This document shows, piece by piece, positions 8,789 through 63,392 of a stretch of 64,000 nt of DNA. The position numbers and the translations under genes were made by a program. Position 1 is the first letter of the stretch. Every line of letters begins with the position of its first letter. A model generated the notes under the pieces. That model was not told the DNA's origin and ran no database searches. It saw only the letters and a program-made list of their open reading frames with translations. The DNA comes from an uncultured Gammaproteobacteria bacterium (lineage in GTDB: Bacteria; Patescibacteriota; Microgenomatia; UBA8517), in contig CAZAXL010000005.1 in NCBI GenBank assembly GCA_964489145.1, positions 7,255-71,254 of the forward strand. Reading direction: 5' to 3'.

Positions 8789-8845
8789 ATTATTTATATA
8801 ATCCTTCGGCTACTGCCTCAGGATCTCGCTTTCCTACGAAAGCTC
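8786..8845 (-). promoter_or_regulatory. Conserved stop-hairpin-SD-AT spacer-start cassette (copy 1, rplK/rplA junction)
   Basis: Minus sense 'GAGCTTTCGTAGGAAAGCGAGATCCTGAGGCAGTAGCCGAAGGATTATATAAATAATATG'. Near-identical to the def/fmt junction. Confidence 0.5.
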
Positions 8846-18448: not shown

Positions 18449-18522
18449 TGGCAGGGGCGGAGGGAATTGAACCCCCATTAACGGTTTTGGAGACCGCTGT
18501 TCTGCCGTTTAACTACGCCCCT
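18449..18522 (-). tRNA. tRNA-Trp (anticodon CCA), CCA encoded
   Basis: Cloverleaf read by eye. Acceptor AGGGGCG/CGCCCCT, anticodon loop CTCCAAA, T-loop TTCAATT. Confidence 0.85.
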
Positions 18523-18570
18523 TTATCGACAACTATTAATTTTACCTTATGTAGCTTGTGAGGGCAAAGG

Positions 18571-18621
18571 AAGGAAAAATAAAGGGCGTTTCTACACAAA
18601 AATTTCTTGTATAAAAACGCC
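18571..18621 (-). terminator. Possible stem-loop terminator after the 114-aa ORF
   Basis: 'GGGCGTTT...AAACGCCC' 8-bp stem with a long loop, followed on the minus strand by a T-rich tract. Weak. Confidence 0.3.
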
Positions 18622-18642
18622 CAAATAAATGGTGCCTAGAAT

Positions 18643-18987
18643 TTATTTTTCGGCAGATAGTTCTGCTATAAATTTCTTCTGGGCTTCTGAAACAAACCTA
18701 CAAATTGGGTCATAATCAACATTCGAATTTTTGTATGCATTACAAATATCATTGCGAATGTCATCAAATAACCGACTAATCAGGTTGACCAAACTTTCAT
18801 TTGGCTTGTTGTTGCCTTGACTGGAAAAGGGATGCCCATTTCTGGTAACTGTGATTTTGGCTGACCAGTCCCAAAGGGTGATTGACTGACGTCCCTTGAC
18901 TGCTTCAATATATATCTCGACCTTACTTTCCTTTCCGCCAGCCCGATTTTCCAAAATGCCTTTTTCTGACAAACTTTTCCGTGACAT
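18643..18987 (-). CDS. Hypothetical protein
   Basis: 114-aa ORF. Confidence 0.35.
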   Translation of the reverse strand: MSRKSLSEKGILENRAGGKESKVEIYIEAVKGRQSITLWDWSAKITVTRNGHPFSSQGNNKPNESLVNLISRLFDDIRNDICNAYKNSNVDYDPICRFVSEAQKKFIAELSAEK

Positions 18988-19129
18988 TTCCTTTTCCTCC
19001 TCAATGTGTAAGTGCGAATTTTTTCACCGCAATTGGTGAATGGGGGAATGATATCCCAAACAGCTTCGAAAGTCAATTAACTATAAGGTATGTAAGGATT
19101 TTTGGATTAAGTAGCTTTAATGGTATACA

Positions 19130-19597
19130 ATGTGTCCCAAACGAATGGCAAACATTGAATTACAATCACAGTCACAAATTAATTATGAGTTGGTAGGAAA
19201 AAAGCTATTATCGGGAGAGGTTATGAATGATGTGGAGAAAAATTCTGTTTTTGGAATCGCAACAAAATTTGCCTCAGATTTAGTTGATGATAAGGCAGAC
19301 TCTCTACGCGGACTATCGCAACAAAGCCAAGATGTGAGAGATCACATGAATGTGATAGTGCTGGACAGATTGGTTTCTTTATATCAGAGCGGTTCTACTG
19401 TAATGTTTGAAAATCTGAAAAAGACGGTATGTGATTCACTTTTAATTAAAAAAAATAGATTGTCCGATGAAAGGCTATACGCTTTTCTAAGCTCCAGCCT
19501 TGACCAATACTTTGGAAATGAAATAAGCAGCGAAGTCAAAAAGGGTATGGACTTCATCCGTGAAACAGTTGAGCTCATTGTTCCCACTAAAATCTGA
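19130..19597 (+). CDS. Hypothetical protein
   Basis: 155-aa ORF. Confidence 0.35.
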   Translation: MCPKRMANIELQSQSQINYELVGKKLLSGEVMNDVEKNSVFGIATKFASDLVDDKADSLRGLSQQSQDVRDHMNVIVLDRLVSLYQSGSTVMFENLKKTVCDSLLIKKNRLSDERLYAFLSSSLDQYFGNEISSEVKKGMDFIRETVELIVPTKI

Positions 19598-19607
19598 CGG
19601 TTGTCAA

Positions 19608-19799
19608 TTACTTTAGTTTTGAAGATTCCTTGTGAATCTGAACTTTCCTGCAATTGTGACAGTATTTCTTCAGTTCAAGTTTTGAGTCTTTTTTTCCTTT
19701 TAACTCCATATTAACTTTGTTTCTTTCTGTAATATAATTTTGGTTTTTGCAAACAGAACAAATCAAAGCCACAATTTCTCTAGCACCTTTTTTAGCCAT
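19608..19799 (-). CDS. rpmG: 50S ribosomal protein L33
   Basis: 63 aa. Zn-ribbon 'CSVCKNQNY...CHNCRK'. Confidence 0.85.
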   Translation of the reverse strand: MAKKGAREIVALICSVCKNQNYITERNKVNMELKGKKDSKLELKKYCHNCRKVQIHKESSKLK

Positions 19800-19851
19800 G
19801 GGGATATTCTAGCAAATTATATGTGAATAGTGAATAGTGAATAGTAATTTG
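19800..19851 (-). promoter_or_regulatory. Putative rpmG promoter: three tandem 'TATTCAC' heptamers + TATAAT
   Basis: Minus sense 'TATTCACTATTCACTATTCACATATAATTTGCTAGAATATCCCCATG'. Confidence 0.4.
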
Positions 19852-19923
19852 AGCCTGAGGTGAGGATTGAACTCACGACCCCGTACTTACCAAGTACGTG
19901 CTCTACCACTGAGCTACCCAGGC
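19852..19923 (-). tRNA. tRNA-Thr (anticodon GGT)
   Basis: GCCTGGG/CTCAGGC acceptor, D-arm GCTCAGTGGTAGAGC, anticodon loop TTGGTAA, T-arm GTGAGTTCAATCCTCAC. Confidence 0.85.
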
Positions 19924-19983
19924 GAGTCACCGAACCTGGGTAGAGAAAGTGGCAAGATTTTCTTACCACTGAGCTACCCAGGC
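19924..19983 (-). repeat. Self-complementary partial copy of the tRNA-Thr(GGT) 5' half directly upstream of the tRNA
   Basis: A 22-nt copy 'GCCTGGGTAGCTCAGTGGTAAG' plus its complement 'CTACCCAGG' form a long hairpin abutting the mature 5' end. Confidence 0.6.
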
Positions 19984-19995
19984 AAATAAAACAAG

Positions 19996-20080
19996 TGCTG
20001 AGGTCAGGATTCGAACCTGAGTAGCCCTTTCGGACGCGAGATTTACAGTCTCGTGCGTTTGACCGCTCCGCCACCTCAGC
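19996..20080 (-). tRNA. tRNA-Tyr (anticodon GTA), long variable arm
   Basis: Anticodon stem-loop CGAGA-CTGTAAA-TCTCG, T-arm TCAGGTTCGAATCCTGA, 85 nt. Confidence 0.85.
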
Positions 20081-20084
20081 GCTG

Positions 20085-20156
20085 AGCCGACGAGAGGATT
20101 CGAACCTCTGACTTGCTGTTTACAAAACAGCTACTCTACCACTGAGTTACGCCGGC
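20085..20156 (-). tRNA. tRNA-Thr (anticodon TGT)
   Basis: GCCGGCG acceptor, D-arm ACTCAGTGGTAGAGT, anticodon loop TTTGTAA, T-arm AGAGGTTCGAATCCTCT. Only 4 nt from tRNA-Tyr. Confidence 0.8.
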
Positions 20157-22304: not shown

Positions 22305-22361
22305 ATATTTATATATCCCTTCGGCCGTTGCCTCAGGATTTCGCTTTCCTACGAAAGCTCA
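22302..22361 (-). promoter_or_regulatory. Conserved stop-hairpin-SD-AT spacer-start cassette (copy 2, def/fmt junction)
   Basis: Minus sense 'GAGCTTTCGTAGGAAAGCGAAATCCTGAGGCAACGGCCGAAGGGATATATAAATATATG'. Confidence 0.5.
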
Positions 22362-30879: not shown

Positions 30880-31403
30880 CCTTTTTGATTTTTGTATTTA
30901 ACTATCTCTTTGAATTTATATTCTAATTTAACACCGGCTTTTCTAAACATCTTTTCTGACTCCCCACCTGTATGATATTTTTTTTCAGCATAAATTCTTT
31001 TTATTCCGGAGTTGATTAAAAGCATTGCGCAAATCCGGCAGGGGGTCATTCTGCAATATACGGTTGCTCCGTCTATGGCAACCCCGCGTTTAGCCGCCTG
31101 GCAGATTGCATTTTGCTCTGCGTGAACCGTCCTGACACAATGACTTGAGATGGTGCCATCTTCATTAAAAGCACGTCTAAGATCATGTCCGGCTTGGTCG
31201 CAATGTGGAAAGCCGATCGGGGAGCCAACATAACCCGTTGCTAAAATTTGCTTGTCTTTTGCTATAACACATCCGCTTCTACCCCTATCACAGGTCGCTC
31301 TTTTGGAAACGGCATCCGCAACCTCCATGAAATAATCATCCCAAGTCGGACGGGTATATTTTTCTTTAATTGATTTTGTTGATGGTTTTTTCGATTTTGT
31401 CAT
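30876..31403 (-). CDS. dCMP deaminase (ComEB-type)
   Basis: 'RPTWDDYFMEVA', 'HAEQNAI', 'PCRICAMLL'. Start taken at the internal Met; the ORF track extends to 31448. Confidence 0.85.
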   Translation of the reverse strand: MTKSKKPSTKSIKEKYTRPTWDDYFMEVADAVSKRATCDRGRSGCVIAKDKQILATGYVGSPIGFPHCDQAGHDLRRAFNEDGTISSHCVRTVHAEQNAICQAAKRGVAIDGATVYCRMTPCRICAMLLINSGIKRIYAEKKYHTGGESEKMFRKAGVKLEYKFKEIVKYKNQKG

Positions 31404-31917
31404 ACAGATCTTCAATGCTGTCATTGTTATCAAATTTATAATCGGCAATCAATATGCATTTTGATAAATTCTGAGCATTTGGATCGCGTGATTGTTTTTC
31501 TTTTTCTTCCTGTAGTTTAAATTCTTCGAATGTGACATTGTCTTTTTCGGAGCCGCGGGATTTTACTCTTTCATATCTTGTCATTTGGTCAGCATCAACC
31601 ACAAAAAGATAACCCCCGTTGTTTTTAATAAATTCTGCTTCTTTAGGATTTCTGATACTTTCTATAATCGCGTTTGCACTTTCCTTTTTTGCTTTTTCAA
31701 AAAGTTTTTTGACAATAAAATCGGGTCCGTATGTAGTTCTTATTTCATTGGCAATTTCCCGCATACCGTTCCTATCAACAGTTCTGCCTTGTCTGACTAA
31801 TTCCTCAGTTAAATATTCCGACACGGAGTAGTGTTTGAAGTTTCTACTGGCTACTAGAAAGTCGACCACGGTTCCTTTACCTGCACCGAGTGTTCCCGTG
31901 ATACCGATAATTAACAT
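31366..31917 (-). CDS. P-loop nucleotide/nucleoside-monophosphate kinase (dNMP-kinase/CoaE-like)
   Basis: 'IIGITGTLGAGKGTV' Walker A, about 180 aa. Next to dCMP deaminase. Confidence 0.5.
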   Translation of the reverse strand: MLIIGITGTLGAGKGTVVDFLVASRNFKHYSVSEYLTEELVRQGRTVDRNGMREIANEIRTTYGPDFIVKKLFEKAKKESANAIIESIRNPKEAEFIKNNGGYLFVVDADQMTRYERVKSRGSEKDNVTFEEFKLQEEKEKQSRDPNAQNLSKCILIADYKFDNNDSIEDLYDKIEKTINKIN

Positions 31918-32059
31918 TCTGTATATTAATATATTATGATAAAATCTTTTGCAATAGCATCCTCCGCAAACTAAAGTTTGCGGTTTTCCTTGAGGGAGGA
32001 TGATATATCAGGTTCAATTCCTCCACGAATTAGAAATTCGTGGTATCCTTGAAACCGTT

Positions 32060-32398
32060 ATGGGATTTTCAGATTTTGATAAATATCAAAAAGAATGTGG
32101 AAAAACTGCCGTCTATCCCAAGATCGGAGAAAGATTTGTCTATCCGCTCCTGGGCTTACAAGGGGAAACAGGTGAAGTTTCGGAAAAAATCAAAAAACTT
32201 TTCAGGGACGAGGGAGGAAAACTTAGTGAGGAAAAAAGACAGGAAATTGCAAAAGAGTTGGGGGACGTTCTTTGGTATTTGGCCCAGCTTTCCAAAGAGA
32301 TTGGAATAAAATTTTCAGATGTTGCCAGGGGAAACTTAAAAAAACTTGCCTCAAGGAAAGTGCGGGGCAAACTTCATGGGAACGGCGACAATAGGTAA
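32060..32398 (+). CDS. MazG-like nucleotide pyrophosphohydrolase
   Basis: 'LQGETGEVSEK', 'ELGDVLWYLAQL'. Internal Met start; the ORF track begins at 32000. Confidence 0.7.
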   Translation: MGFSDFDKYQKECGKTAVYPKIGERFVYPLLGLQGETGEVSEKIKKLFRDEGGKLSEEKRQEIAKELGDVLWYLAQLSKEIGIKFSDVARGNLKKLASRKVRGKLHGNGDNR

Positions 32399-46668: not shown

Positions 46669-47286
46669 ATGGAGCAAAATAATCAGCCAAGCTTTAACGT
46701 TGTAACAACTAACAAGCCAAGTAAAAACACCAAACAGGGTTTGATAATAGGTGCTTTAGTTGTTGTCTTTTTGGCTATAGCTGTTGTCGCTGGAGTCATT
46801 CTTGTCAGACAGCAGCAAGATATTAGGGAAAAGGCAGAAGCAGTTCTTGTTTGCCCTGCAGCCGAAGCTTGTCCTGTCGCAGGGGATCCAACTTTATTAA
46901 AAAGCTGCTATTCAGCGGATGCGGGGGATCCTCCGCGGGATATAAGCTGTTCAACGATTGCCAACGTCGGTGCCACAACTTTTTGCGGTTCAACAAATTT
47001 TTGCTGTCCGTCGCTGGGTGCTTCTTGGACCACAGATTTAACGATGTGTTCAACACCAAGCCCGACGCCGACACTAACTCCGACACCATCCGCAACCGCA
47101 ACCGCGACTGCCAGTGCAACGCCTACAGAAACTGCAACCTCTTCTGCAACCTCTTCTGCAACACCCCAAGCTACAGGCTCGGCAACACCGGCCCCGATTC
47201 CTGTAACAGGAATGAGTTGGCCAACAATAGTTGGAACAGCAGTGGGAATATTGGTAATAATTGGGTCAATTCTTCTGGTGCTCTAG
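46669..47286 (+). CDS. Cys-rich cell-surface protein with T/S/A/P linker and C-terminal 'IPVTG'+TM sorting-signal-like tail
   Basis: N-terminal TM, 9 Cys in about 100 aa, 'TPSPTPTLTPTPSATATATASATPTETATSSATSSATPQATGSATPAPIPVTG', then a hydrophobic C-terminus. Confidence 0.5.
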   Translation: MEQNNQPSFNVVTTNKPSKNTKQGLIIGALVVVFLAIAVVAGVILVRQQQDIREKAEAVLVCPAAEACPVAGDPTLLKSCYSADAGDPPRDISCSTIANVGATTFCGSTNFCCPSLGASWTTDLTMCSTPSPTPTLTPTPSATATATASATPTETATSSATSSATPQATGSATPAPIPVTGMSWPTIVGTAVGILVIIGSILLVL

Positions 47287-47777
47287 TGGAGTTTGATTTT
47301 TTTAATTGAAAATTTATCCCCCTTCGCGAATACCCCGGGCGTTAGCTCGTGGGTAAGCGAAGTGTTTTCGCTTCGGAGGGATTCCACTCCAGACGAAGCT
47401 GGGGAGAAGATACCCCGACCGTAAGGCTGGGGAGCTTCATTGACAACTATCCCTACATGGTCAATTAAAGGAAAATGACTTTTTATTTCGGTTTGAAATT
47501 TCTCAGCAAGATTTGAAGTATAGGAACCGAATCCGGCGTTTTCAGATTGTTTGCAAAGCCTGTCTTCCCATTCATGGATAATATTAAGGATTTCGGCGCC
47601 GATTTTATTAAATTCCTCCTGATTTTTCTCTTGGTCAATTGAATATTCGAAATGCGCTTTGGTGAATTTATTAAAGGCATCTTTATTTTCTGAAACCATC
47701 TTGTCGAAATACACCTTGTATTTGGTCATATGGGAAATTTTGTCTGAAAACGGAGAGAAAATCAACCACAAAAACAT
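47283..47777 (-). CDS. Hypothetical protein whose 3' end reads through repeat copy A
   Basis: 164-aa ORF. The last about 50 codons are encoded by the repeat, so the true C-terminus is uncertain. Confidence 0.35.
   Translation of the reverse strand: MFLWLIFSPFSDKISHMTKYKVYFDKMVSENKDAFNKFTKAHFEYSIDQEKNQEEFNKIGAEILNIIHEWEDRLCKQSENAGFGSYTSNLAEKFQTEIKSHFPLIDHVGIVVNEAPQPYGRGIFSPASSGVESLRSENTSLTHELTPGVFAKGDKFSIKKIKLH
47313..47439. repeat. About 127-nt dispersed structured repeat, copy A
   Basis: About 90% identical to 62285-62414. Conserved hairpin AAGCGAA-GTGTT-TTCGCTT. Confidence 0.8.
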
Positions 47778-62284: not shown

Positions 62285-62414
62285 TTTATCCCCCTTCGCG
62301 AATACCCCGGGCGTGAGCCCGCGGGTAAGCGAAGTGGTTTCGCTTCGGAGGGATTCCGCTCCCGACGAAGCGCTGGGAGAAGATACCCCGACCGTAAGGT
62401 CGTGGGGAGCTTCA
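62285..62414. repeat. About 130-nt dispersed structured repeat, copy B
   Basis: About 90% identical to 47313-47439. Its last 3 nt form the TGA stop of the minus-strand gene 62412..63392. Confidence 0.8.
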
Positions 62415-63392
62415 GTCCTCTTTAAGAAGATTGAAAAGCGAACGTGTAAGAGCCGGAGTGCCTGTCATGTCGGAAACCATAACCAAAGTGTCCGATGAAG
62501 AAATATCAGCCAGCTTGATTTGTTTTATTTTCCCGTCAGAAAAAGATTCGATGCTTGTGTTTTTATCGGGTGTAATGGTTGTTGTCTGGCCTTCTTTTTC
62601 AGAAACAAGAGTCAGGGATTTTTTGGTGACATCATTAACTTTTTGTATCGATACACTGATTTTTGTCTCGACAGGGGAGTCTGTAACAAGAATTCTTTGG
62701 GCATCGAGTACATCGTCTCCGTCAACGTATCCCATCGCAACTATAAAATCTCCGATTGCAATATCTGTCAGTTTTACAGTTTTATTATTTGTTCCTTTGG
62801 TGTTTACAACGACAACATCCGATCCACCTGTTTCGATTTGCTGGATTTGTCTGTCGGTGGTTTTTATTTGAATTGTCGAATCGGCAATATCAGTCACAGT
62901 TCCGATATAGGCCTTGGGCGGATTTCCCGCCTGGGTAATTTTTTGGGCTACGGTTTCATTTTCGTCTGTTGGTGTTTGGAAAGAAGCCGAATATACGGTA
63001 AAAATTTCTTGTGTTGCAACATTTCCCTGTAGGTTTACCGAAGAAACTTTGATACTGTTAATTCCGGAGACAAGATCCACTTCTTTTGAAAAAGTTCCGT
63101 CATCAAGACTCTCCGTGAGGTAGTCTCCTTTTTCTGTTGAAATAACGACCAATGTTAAGGGTTTTGTAATACCGGAAATGCCTATAGAGCCTGATGTAAC
63201 AACATCGAAATTTTCAGGTTTATTAACAGTAATCATAAACTGACCGACGCTACCCTGGGAATTGGGGGTAGGTGTTGGTGCATTTTTGGATGTTATAGAT
63301 GAACGAACTCTCCAAGCACCAAATCCGATTATGAGTCCAAATAAAATTCCGATAACCCCAGCCCAAAGCAATTCTTTTCTCATTGAAACCAC
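62412..63392 (-). CDS. Hypothetical secreted/membrane-anchored protein
   Basis: N-terminal TM 'LLWAGVIGILFGLIIGFGAW', then a T/S-rich beta-like domain. Confidence 0.4.
   Translation of the reverse strand: MVSMRKELLWAGVIGILFGLIIGFGAWRVRSSITSKNAPTPTPNSQGSVGQFMITVNKPENFDVVTSGSIGISGITKPLTLVVISTEKGDYLTESLDDGTFSKEVDLVSGINSIKVSSVNLQGNVATQEIFTVYSASFQTPTDENETVAQKITQAGNPPKAYIGTVTDIADSTIQIKTTDRQIQQIETGGSDVVVVNTKGTNNKTVKLTDIAIGDFIVAMGYVDGDDVLDAQRILVTDSPVETKISVSIQKVNDVTKKSLTLVSEKEGQTTTITPDKNTSIESFSDGKIKQIKLADISSSDTLVMVSDMTGTPALTRSLFNLLKED

Follow-up and report, generated by a model that had tools for sequence, protein, structure and literature searches.

A TTTAT-specific, frame-preserving repeat of Woesebacteria/Microgenomates is probably a non-autonomous mobile DNA element

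Two copies of a short repeat in a Microgenomates contig

The DNA analysed here, referred to as the window, is a 64,000-nucleotide (nt) stretch of contig CAZAXL010000005.1 (assembly GCA_964489145.1, positions 7,255 to 71,254) from a member of the Microgenomatia. It carries two strong copies of a short structured repeat, referred to as the element. Copy A (47318–47440, plus strand) is 123 nt long, reads CCCCCTTCGCG...GGGGAGCTTCAT and scores 109.3 bits against a covariance model built from 93 copies of the family. Copy B (62290–62415, plus strand) is 126 nt long, has G as its final base where T is usual, and scores 123.9 bits. These were the only strong copies detected by the model in the 64-kb window (124 and 109 bits).

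An initial annotation of this DNA had described two copies, about 90% identical, and pairwise alignment bore this out: the copies are ∼90% identical over their full length with two small indels, and share a gapless block of 87 nt that is 93% identical. The similarity starts abruptly at TTTATCCCCC (47313 and 62285) and ends at GGGGAGCTTCA(T/G) (47440 and 62415). The flanking sequences on either side are unrelated and could not be aligned. The G+C content of the elements is 57–63%, compared with ∼40% for the window. The duplicated ATACCCCG box noted earlier is present (five matches versus 0.4 expected), as are the complementary ends in both copies. An extent of 127 nt had been given; the element is real, but the net inserted DNA is 123 nt in copy A and 126 nt in copy B, and the preceding TTTAT (47313–47317 and 62285–62289) is host target sequence.

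Copy A is inserted in frame within an open reading frame (ORF) on the minus strand (47283–47777), which encodes a conserved small protein; the insertion adds 41 codons in frame and leaves 11 codons between itself and the stop. The remark in the initial annotation that this frame reads through the element was correct and proved to be the key clue; the element contributes 41 codons rather than about 50. More than 100 homologues of this protein from Woesebacteria/Microgenomates, ∼105–108 amino acids (aa) long, end in ...GIVVNKFSIKKIKL(H/R), and the window protein has EAPQPYGRGIFSPASSGVESLRSENTSLTHELTPGVFAKGD inserted between N and K, a gain of 41 residues. In two syntenic loci encoding HisKA, a response regulator and the small protein (L125 and L126), exactly 123 nt are missing at the insertion point. 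These empty sites keep the bases equivalent to the TTTAT (reverse complement ATAAA) that abuts copy A on its 5′ side and matches the flank consensus. Two independent ENA assemblies (L127 and L128) share the copy A insertion. An AlphaFold model made from a shallow alignment has a helical host core and an insert without secondary structure (pLDDT <50).

The gene next to copy A (46669–47286, plus strand), described previously as encoding a Cys-rich surface protein, specifies an N-terminal membrane helix, a Cys-rich segment, a low-complexity stretch rich in Thr, Ser, Pro and Ala with a weak match to Podoplanin, and a C-terminal hydrophobic helix. Its stop codon overlaps that of the convergent copy A host ORF by 4 nt.

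Copy B lies exactly on the TAA stop codon of its host gene (62412–63392, minus strand), which encodes a 326-aa membrane-anchored protein with a Glucodextran_B-like domain (Pfam PF09136, E 4e-7). The gene now ends at a TGA (62414–62412, minus strand) derived from the terminal TCA of the element. L129 contains an orthologue that is 89% identical but lacks the element, and the end of the gene there reads ...GAA TAA AGCC. Copy B, by contrast, sits between GGA and ATAAA in the window, and the original TAA has been displaced to the far end of the element (62288–62286), within the minus strand of the TTTAT target. The 415 homologues of this protein are 308–371 aa long; as they are equal in length to the window protein, the copy B host is not truncated.

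The element inserts 3′ of TTTAT

Three pairs of occupied and empty sites with exact junctions were available: copy A and L125/L126, copy B and L129, and L116 and L070. In the last pair the flanks are 99% identical and the net gain is 129 nt, the empty site in L070 reading ...GATTTTTAT|ATTGCC and the occupied site in L116 reading ...GATTTTTAT[CCCCC...GCTTCAT]ATTGCC. Among 95 distinct left flanks, the five bases preceding CCCCC are T, T, T, A and T in 87, 95, 98, 98 and 99% of cases respectively. The last five bases of the element are TTCAT, and the right flank is of near-background composition with its first two bases weakly T-rich. The consensus bounds are TTTAT-CCCCCTTCGC... on the left and ...GGGAGCTTCAT on the right. 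Terminal inverted repeats are absent, the consensus ends CCCCCTTCGCG... and ...GGGAGCTTCAT not being complementary. Identical element sequences were found with different flanks (L014, L035 and L086), and the orientation of the element relative to neighbouring genes is mixed.

A family of related elements in the Candidate Phyla Radiation

The initial annotation had called for comparison with related genomes, and this revealed many further full-length copies. A 20-mer from the left end retrieved copies in four genome loci, one in a complete Candidatus Woesebacteria chromosome (CP066686.1) and three on contigs of metagenome-assembled genomes (MAGs) titled ‘uncultured Gammaproteobacteria’; two additional matches to the 20-mer in genomes were due to chance and were discarded. 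A two-block pattern retrieved at least 118 metagenome stretches, many of them from 0.1-µm groundwater fractions; as this pattern fixes TTCGGAGGGATT and GGAGAAGATACC, conservation there is by construction and the diversity of the family is under-sampled. A search with nhmmer gave 134 matches in the window and 124 loci, and the matches listed include 110 distinct sequences, 101 distinct full-length copies and 97 distinct sites. Two or three copies per locus are present in the window, L006, L033, L072, L109 and L116. Matches to three patterns in viral contigs were chance matches only, none being confirmed by the covariance model. Neither solo ends nor an autonomous parent element were found among the collected loci. 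Searches of protein databases with element peptides yielded 10 matches for a profile joining four frames and four for a single peptide, under a strict E-value for such short matches and with one representative per 50%-identity cluster, conditions ill suited to detecting peptides of this kind.

A third, diverged element lies between genes at 31955–32063 on the minus strand (...GGAUACC-hairpin-GGAGGAAUUGAAC...GGAAAACC-hairpin-GGAGGAUGCUAU), adjoining the minus-strand gene 31366–31917 on its upstream side. It scores 21 bits with the main-family covariance model (at ∼31954–32063), and is matched at E 3.5e-11 by a profile of a sister family that was built without the window. The sister family is lower in GC and has the same two-hairpin architecture. 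Its profile also weakly matches main-family copies, indicating that the two families are related. On these sequence similarities, the window holds three elements of one superfamily. Another sub-family has GUCCAC/GUGGAC in place of the CCCCC/GGGGG helix with the architecture unchanged; sub-families with differing helix sequences thus retain one architecture.

Several variants and contexts were recorded in the course of this survey. Longer variants of 165–171 nt contain an extra module of 36–42 nt (L094 2264–2435; L072 4381–4591; L025 9614–9788; L095 523–691). Some of these have the module (e.g. TCCTTCGACAGGCTCAGGATGGTGAGC...GAACCATAAG) within the loop of one or both of the subterminal hairpins described below (H1 and H4), and L095 has an additional hairpin within the central stem. 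Most of the add-ons are also multiples of three in length. In L023 (60–190) the H1 region contains 3.3 tandem repeats of a 30-nt unit (TAAGCGAAGCTTGGCTGATGAGTACACCAG) that includes the string CUGAUGAG. The three MAG loci titled ‘uncultured Gammaproteobacteria’ (L001, L002 and L006; CAZBTH01, CAZCNT01) have 38–43% G+C and genes like those of the Candidate Phyla Radiation (CPR), such as PMT_2 and Wzy_C-type membrane proteins, and the label is probably wrong. Two sets of loci (L014/L035/L086 and L018/L044/L067) each draw on a shared stock of left and right flanks, which surround identical or nearly identical elements in varying pairings. Such pairings suggest either that copies have recombined or that the metagenome assemblies are chimeric at the repeat; the element appears to cause chimeric joins, with swapped flanks in these six loci.

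Subterminal hairpins and alternative folds of the core

Both copies in the window fold considerably better than dinucleotide shuffles on both strands (z −4.0 to −5.2). The left subterminal hairpin H1 of copy A (47333–47353, plus strand) is CCCCGGGC-GUUA-GCUCGUGGG, preceded by AAUA, and the right subterminal hairpin H4 (47413–47432, plus strand) is CCCCGACC-GUAA-GGCUGGGG, with GAUA before it and AGCUUCAU after it. The corresponding hairpins of copy B, also on the plus strand, are CCCCGGGC-GUGA-GCCCGCGGG (62305–62325) and CCCCGACC-GUAA-GGUCGUGGGG (62386–62407). Differences between the H1 sequences of copies B and A keep or improve pairing (U-G to C-G). H1 lies ∼16 nt from the left end and H4 ends ∼8 nt from the right end, with a GC-rich core between them. 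The two hairpins share a common design in the same orientation, (A/G)AUACC-N-CG-NNC-GNRA-GNN-CG-N-GG, in which an internal mismatch recurs. A profile of either end of the element also matches the other end.

Covariation was scored over 90 distinct copies. In H1, columns 29–41 are GC in 39 copies and AU in 37, and columns 30–40 are GC in 67, AU in 6 and UA in 4. In H4, columns 122–129 are CG in 37, GC in 31 and UA in 16, and columns 121–130 are AU in 69 and GC in 15. The central hairpin (copy A, 47370–47399, plus strand: GCUUCG-GA-GGGA...UCC-AGA-CGAAGC) is paired in 89.5% of cells, although its left half is fixed by the search pattern and its conservation therefore carries no information; the pair 70–101 that extends it covaries (CG 40, UA 31). 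The perfect 7-bp AAGCGAA/TTCGCTT hairpin singled out in the initial annotation is present in the window copies but is not kept in the larger sub-families; the helices that are conserved and covary across the family are others.

The core can adopt two mutually exclusive folds, S1 and S2, and complementarity is kept in both. In S1 the 5′ CCCCC pairs with the 3′ GGGG, CUUCGC pairs with GCGAAG, and the hairpin GCUUCG-GA-GGGA...UCCC-GA-CGAAGC is formed. In S2 the 5′ AUCCCCCU pairs with the central GGAGGGAU, GCRR with YYGC (columns 15–70: GC 50, AU 36; columns 16–69: AU 41, GC 33), and CUCCC with GGGAG. Paired cells amount to 88.9% and 91.6%, compared with ∼40–56% in slid controls, and the observed covariation score was reached by none of 500 shuffles. 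The RNAalifold fold differs from the single-sequence minimum-free-energy fold, and both were supported by tests made by hand. As S1 and S2 are both supported and exclude each other, we do not commit to a single global fold.

Insertions preserve reading frames or exchange stop codons

Most copies are 129 nt long; the window copies are 123 and 126 nt, and the range is 96–171 nt. The net lengths observed are 96, 123, 126, 129 (the mode), 132, 165, 168 and 171 nt, with exceptions of 98, 128, 130 and 166 nt. A length divisible by three (3n) was found in 83 of 93 copies and in 19 of the 26 different indel patterns (P = 4e-5 for the patterns in a binomial test). Indels of 1–2 nt at five separate positions sum to multiples of three, and all of the copies that are not 3n in length lie between genes or after a stop codon at the point of entry into the element. 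Anchored frames free of stop codons numbered 78 (M1), 76 (M2), 71 (P1), 59 (P2), 11 (P3) and 0 (M3), each out of 91, counts that, like those of length, are not independent since the copies are related by descent. Four of the six frames are therefore usually open. M1 reads ‘MKLP...RRGI’, M2 ‘EAP...AKGD’ and P1 ‘LSPFA...GAS’; M3 begins with TGA. Sub-families differ in the frame used for the central part, indicating that the constraint would be on length and on the absence of stop codons rather than on peptide sequence. Despite the kinship of the copies, the compensating indels argue that 3n length and open frames reflect selection for harmless insertion. A mini-gene on the minus strand (ATG...TAA) was also considered, and was rejected because the frame is not maintained between copies.

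With a length of 3n and no stop codons, an insertion within a gene would add 32–57 residues without truncating the protein. Internal sites, those with 50 or more open codons to either side, account for 14 of 97 sites, nine in the minus and five in the plus orientation. At 37 of the 97 sites the element is entered by an ORF that is 60 codons long or more, and at 17 of those 37 the ORF stops exactly at the first minus-strand codon of the element, TGA. Since the target reads ATAAA on the other strand and the element begins with TGA in that direction, insertion on a TAA stop codon only swaps the stop and leaves the protein unchanged. This also explains why copies are found at the 3′ ends of genes, TTTAT being the reverse complement of ATAAA, which often holds a TAA stop. 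The position of the window copies at gene 3′ ends, noted previously, is therefore real, but its cause is the TTTAT target; that the neighbouring proteins are extracytoplasmic is incidental to it.

The hosts of read-through copies are genuine conserved genes, entered on either strand. In UvrA the insert lies in an inter-domain linker of ∼10 residues, at a position corresponding to residues 618–628 of the Bacillus protein. YchF is another in-frame host, and further hosts include PheT, bacterial PGI, adenylate kinase (Adk), methionine aminopeptidase (Map), PMT_2 and Wzy_C membrane glycosyltransferases, an FkbM methyltransferase and a C39-like peptidase. Linker or terminal positions of this kind, together with the low-confidence disordered model of the copy A insert, are indirect signs that inserts may be translated and tolerated in the folded protein. 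Predicted peptides across the junction of host and element include ...HVGIVVNEAPQPYGR and GIFSPASSGVESLR.

The element is thus mobile, specific for TTTAT, frame-preserving and stop-swapping. It is probably a non-autonomous mobile DNA element of Woesebacteria/Microgenomates within the CPR.

A possible single-strand mechanism of transposition

The ends of the element match published hallmarks of the IS200/IS605 family and of group A IStrons, which points to movement by an HUH transposase. IS200/IS605 elements insert 3′ of a T-rich pentanucleotide, TTTAT being among the published targets; they terminate at the 3′ end in TCAT or TCAG, have specificity on the 5′ side only, lack terminal inverted repeats and carry similar subterminal palindromes at both ends (PMC4227781). 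The element likewise lacks terminal inverted repeats, has similar subterminal palindromes in the same orientation, ends in TCAT and has a T-rich target with specificity on the 5′ side only. Movement would then be single-stranded-DNA, hairpin-guided transposition of the IS200/IS605 type, with a Y1 HUH transposase supplied in trans and the covarying hairpins H1 and H4 serving as its putative recognition sites. We consider an HUH single-strand mechanism a plausible but tentative assignment, its chances falling a little short of even.

The spacing of the hairpins, wider on the left than on the right, resembles that of IS608. Recognition of the cleavage sites of IS608 is aided by short ‘guide’ sequences that lie 5′ of each hairpin. 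By analogy, the AANA and GATA that precede H1 and H4 are candidate counterparts of the guide sequences. Y1_Tnp genes are present in related genomes: RAYT-like Y1_Tnp (PF01797) genes were found in the related CPR loci L131 (1316–1918), L083 (8527–9170) and L071 (3481–4137), each flanked by its own short hairpins resembling repetitive extragenic palindromes (REPs), e.g. CCTTAAAGACCGTGTCTTTAAGG in L131. One of the REP-like hairpins of L131 lies in frame inside the transposase gene itself (∼1418–1446).

Several observations weigh against this picture. The hairpins flanking the RAYT-like genes are unlike H1 and H4, and no transposase with the ends of the element was found among the loci and flanks searched. 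An IS200-type TnpA was absent from ∼840 kb around the copies in a tblastn search, a weak one made with approximate IS200/IS608 TnpA queries. IS200/IS605 insertions are expected to be strand-biased, and the orientation of the element relative to local GC skew was 38:30 (P = 0.4), on short contigs in which skew is confounded by gene strand. Counts of G:U versus A:C wobbles do not single out one functional strand, and translation of the insert is predicted from intact reading frames. The dinucleotide AT, common to TTTAT and TTCAT, is present at both junctions in all three pairs of occupied and empty sites. Because AT is shared by both ends, the junctions fit a duplication-free insertion behind TTTAT as well as a duplication of, or a crossover at, the 2-bp AT.

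A fuller proposal is that the element is a miniature transposon with IS200/IS605 ends, that coding stealth has shaped its entire body, through 3n length, four frames free of stops and a TGA at the entry that suits the ATAAA target, and that it is moved in trans by Y1 (RAYT-like) transposases of the CPR. This combination remains speculative, and we regard it as possible but doubtful.

Alternative explanations

Movement by a different enzyme, either an IS607-type serine recombinase with an AT crossover or a DDE transposase producing a 2-bp AT duplication, would account for the AT at both junctions in all three comparisons, for the resemblance of the left TTTAT and right TTCAT to two half-related recombination cores, and for an orientation that is unbiased with respect to GC skew. 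However, DDE elements require terminal inverted repeats, which are absent. The classical hallmarks of a DDE-derived miniature inverted-repeat transposable element, such repeats together with a target-site duplication, are not found, at most the 2 bp AT being repeated. The ends of IS607 form imperfect AT-rich inverted repeats (PMC4227781), unlike those of the element. Specificity is on the 5′ side only, and similar, covarying end hairpins in the same orientation fit recognition of a single strand and not sequence-specific binding of a duplex. Such an enzyme therefore seems unlikely. A duplication or assembly artefact, or chance similarity confined to the contig, would agree with the presence of only two strong copies in the window. 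The initial annotation had envisaged this for two copies alone within longer identical flanks; instead, the flanks are unrelated, the element is found at over 120 loci of independent origin, spanning many samples and assemblers, and the copy A insertion recurs in L127 and L128. The chance of an artefact is negligible.

The initial annotation had proposed, besides a miniature mobile element, a small RNA gene or a 3′-UTR regulatory element. Of the three, only the mobile element fits the data. A structured non-coding RNA duplicated in the genome, acting as a small RNA or as a 3′-UTR stabiliser or regulator, is favoured by the strong and significant folding on both strands, by GNRA-type loops and compensatory changes in four helices, and by the surroundings of copy B, which has a stop codon on one side and, on the other, a long minus-strand hairpin followed by a T-run, seen by eye but not flagged by a terminator scan. 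Terminator and promoter scans around both copies gave nothing above chance. The Rfam 15 scan that had been suggested found nothing in the element at E≤10, its only matches at gathering thresholds being four tRNAs elsewhere in the window. Moreover, copies lie inside ORFs in both orientations and in mixed orientation to neighbouring genes, orthologous loci without the element show no other change, 3n length has no rationale at the RNA level, and wobble pairs show no strand asymmetry; we judge an RNA function of this kind improbable. A related idea is that the element is removed or skipped after transcription, as a mini-intron, a self-cleaving and ligating RNA, or by ribosomal bypass as in T4 gene 60 and the mitochondrial ‘byp’ elements. 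A GC-rich structured insert within essential genes of an AT-rich genome, with a conserved multi-helix core and alternative folds, would suit this, and IStrons, in which IS200/IS605 ends are combined with a splicing RNA, provide a precedent (PMC4227781). Yet genic insertions occur in both orientations (nine minus, five plus), a pattern that an RNA activity confined to one strand could not serve; an insert that is removed would need neither 3n length nor open frames, 129 nt is far below the size of a group I or II intron, and no ribozyme family is matched. Removal from the transcript is accordingly very improbable.

Relation to known elements

Among known systems, the Rickettsia palindromic elements (RPEs) are the closest functional analogue of this mobile, frame-preserving element, and IS200/IS605 miniature derivatives (PATEs) and IStrons are the closest mechanistic analogues. 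RPEs (Ogata et al. 2000, as summarised in PMC10969869) are found in frame in many unrelated genes. Like the CPR element, RPEs are structured, non-autonomous repeats of ∼100–150 bp, occur in small AT-rich genomes with no known transposase, and lie both between genes and in frame within unrelated housekeeping genes, where they are read as part of the protein. RPEs belong to a different phylum, being found in Alphaproteobacteria. The CPR element is further set apart by its strict TTTAT target, by ends like those of IS200/IS605 and by a pair of homologous hairpins near its ends; it is also translatable in four frames in both orientations and has a dedicated TGA frame that swaps stop codons. Judged from phylum and from the GC-rich consensus, homology to RPE-1 to RPE-10 is unlikely. 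To our knowledge, the means by which RPEs move has been unknown since 2000.

The IS200/IS605 elements, PATEs and IStrons share with the CPR element a T-rich 5′ target, a TCAT end, the lack of terminal inverted repeats and similar subterminal palindromes. The CPR element differs in that no tnpA or tnpB gene sharing its ends was found, in its lack of GC-skew bias, in the AT ambiguity at its junctions, and in the elaborate conserved core between its end hairpins. It would be harmless by frame preservation, whereas IStrons are so by splicing.

REPs are extragenic palindromes of 20–40 nt that carry a GTAG or CGTC tag and are presumably mobilised in trans by a Y1 enzyme whose gene is present in a single copy. 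The resemblance to REP/REPIN-RAYT systems lies in the hairpin repeats and in the RAYT-like Y1_Tnp genes with their own hairpins in related CPR loci, but the CPR element is 129 nt long with several helices, is often intragenic, and has hairpins that differ from those at the RAYT-like genes. ERIC/RU repeats and Coxiella QMITEs are likewise small repeats, sometimes with open frames and occasionally fused to host ORFs (PMC2759123, PMC5896051). These have terminal inverted repeats and target duplications, and their in-frame fusion is occasional, whereas that of the CPR element is built into its length and frames. No account of such an element in CPR/Patescibacteria was found in the full-text literature, the coverage of which is incomplete, so that absence is not proof.

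In-frame ‘selfish DNA in protein-coding genes’, best known from Rickettsia, thus also occurs in the CPR, another lineage with small and streamlined genomes, and the in-frame copies there include those in the essential genes uvrA, pheT and ychF. The clean TTTAT target, the IS200/IS605-like ends and the abundance of occupied and empty pairs make the mechanism of transposition experimentally approachable. For CPR genomics, lineage-specific inserts of 41–43 residues, altered stop codons and apparent N- or C-terminal extensions caused by the element could be mistaken for biology. The signature of 3n length and open frames offers a simple rule for finding similar elements elsewhere. If the body of the element is indeed shaped for coding stealth, this would be a third route to harmlessness within genes, besides the splicing of IStrons and the avoidance of genes, and would suggest a concrete transposition mechanism for in-frame elements of the RPE type.

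Other repeats and RNA genes in the window

A second, unrelated repeat of 55 nt is present in two copies with 89% identity, at 8791–8845 and 22306–22360. Read on the minus strand, it includes the final codons of rplK (L11) and def, both of whose proteins end ...ELS*, and makes up the whole spacer to the ATG of the next gene (rplA and fmt respectively). On the plus strand it starts directly after TTTAT. Searches of Rfam with this repeat gave sub-threshold noise only. This repeat, too, may be a small insertion element, one that provides genes with a stop codon.

A tRNA cluster occupies 18449–20156 on the minus strand, with genes for tRNA-Thr(TGT), tRNA-Tyr(GTA) and tRNA-Thr(GGT) and, somewhat further away, tRNA-Trp(CCA).

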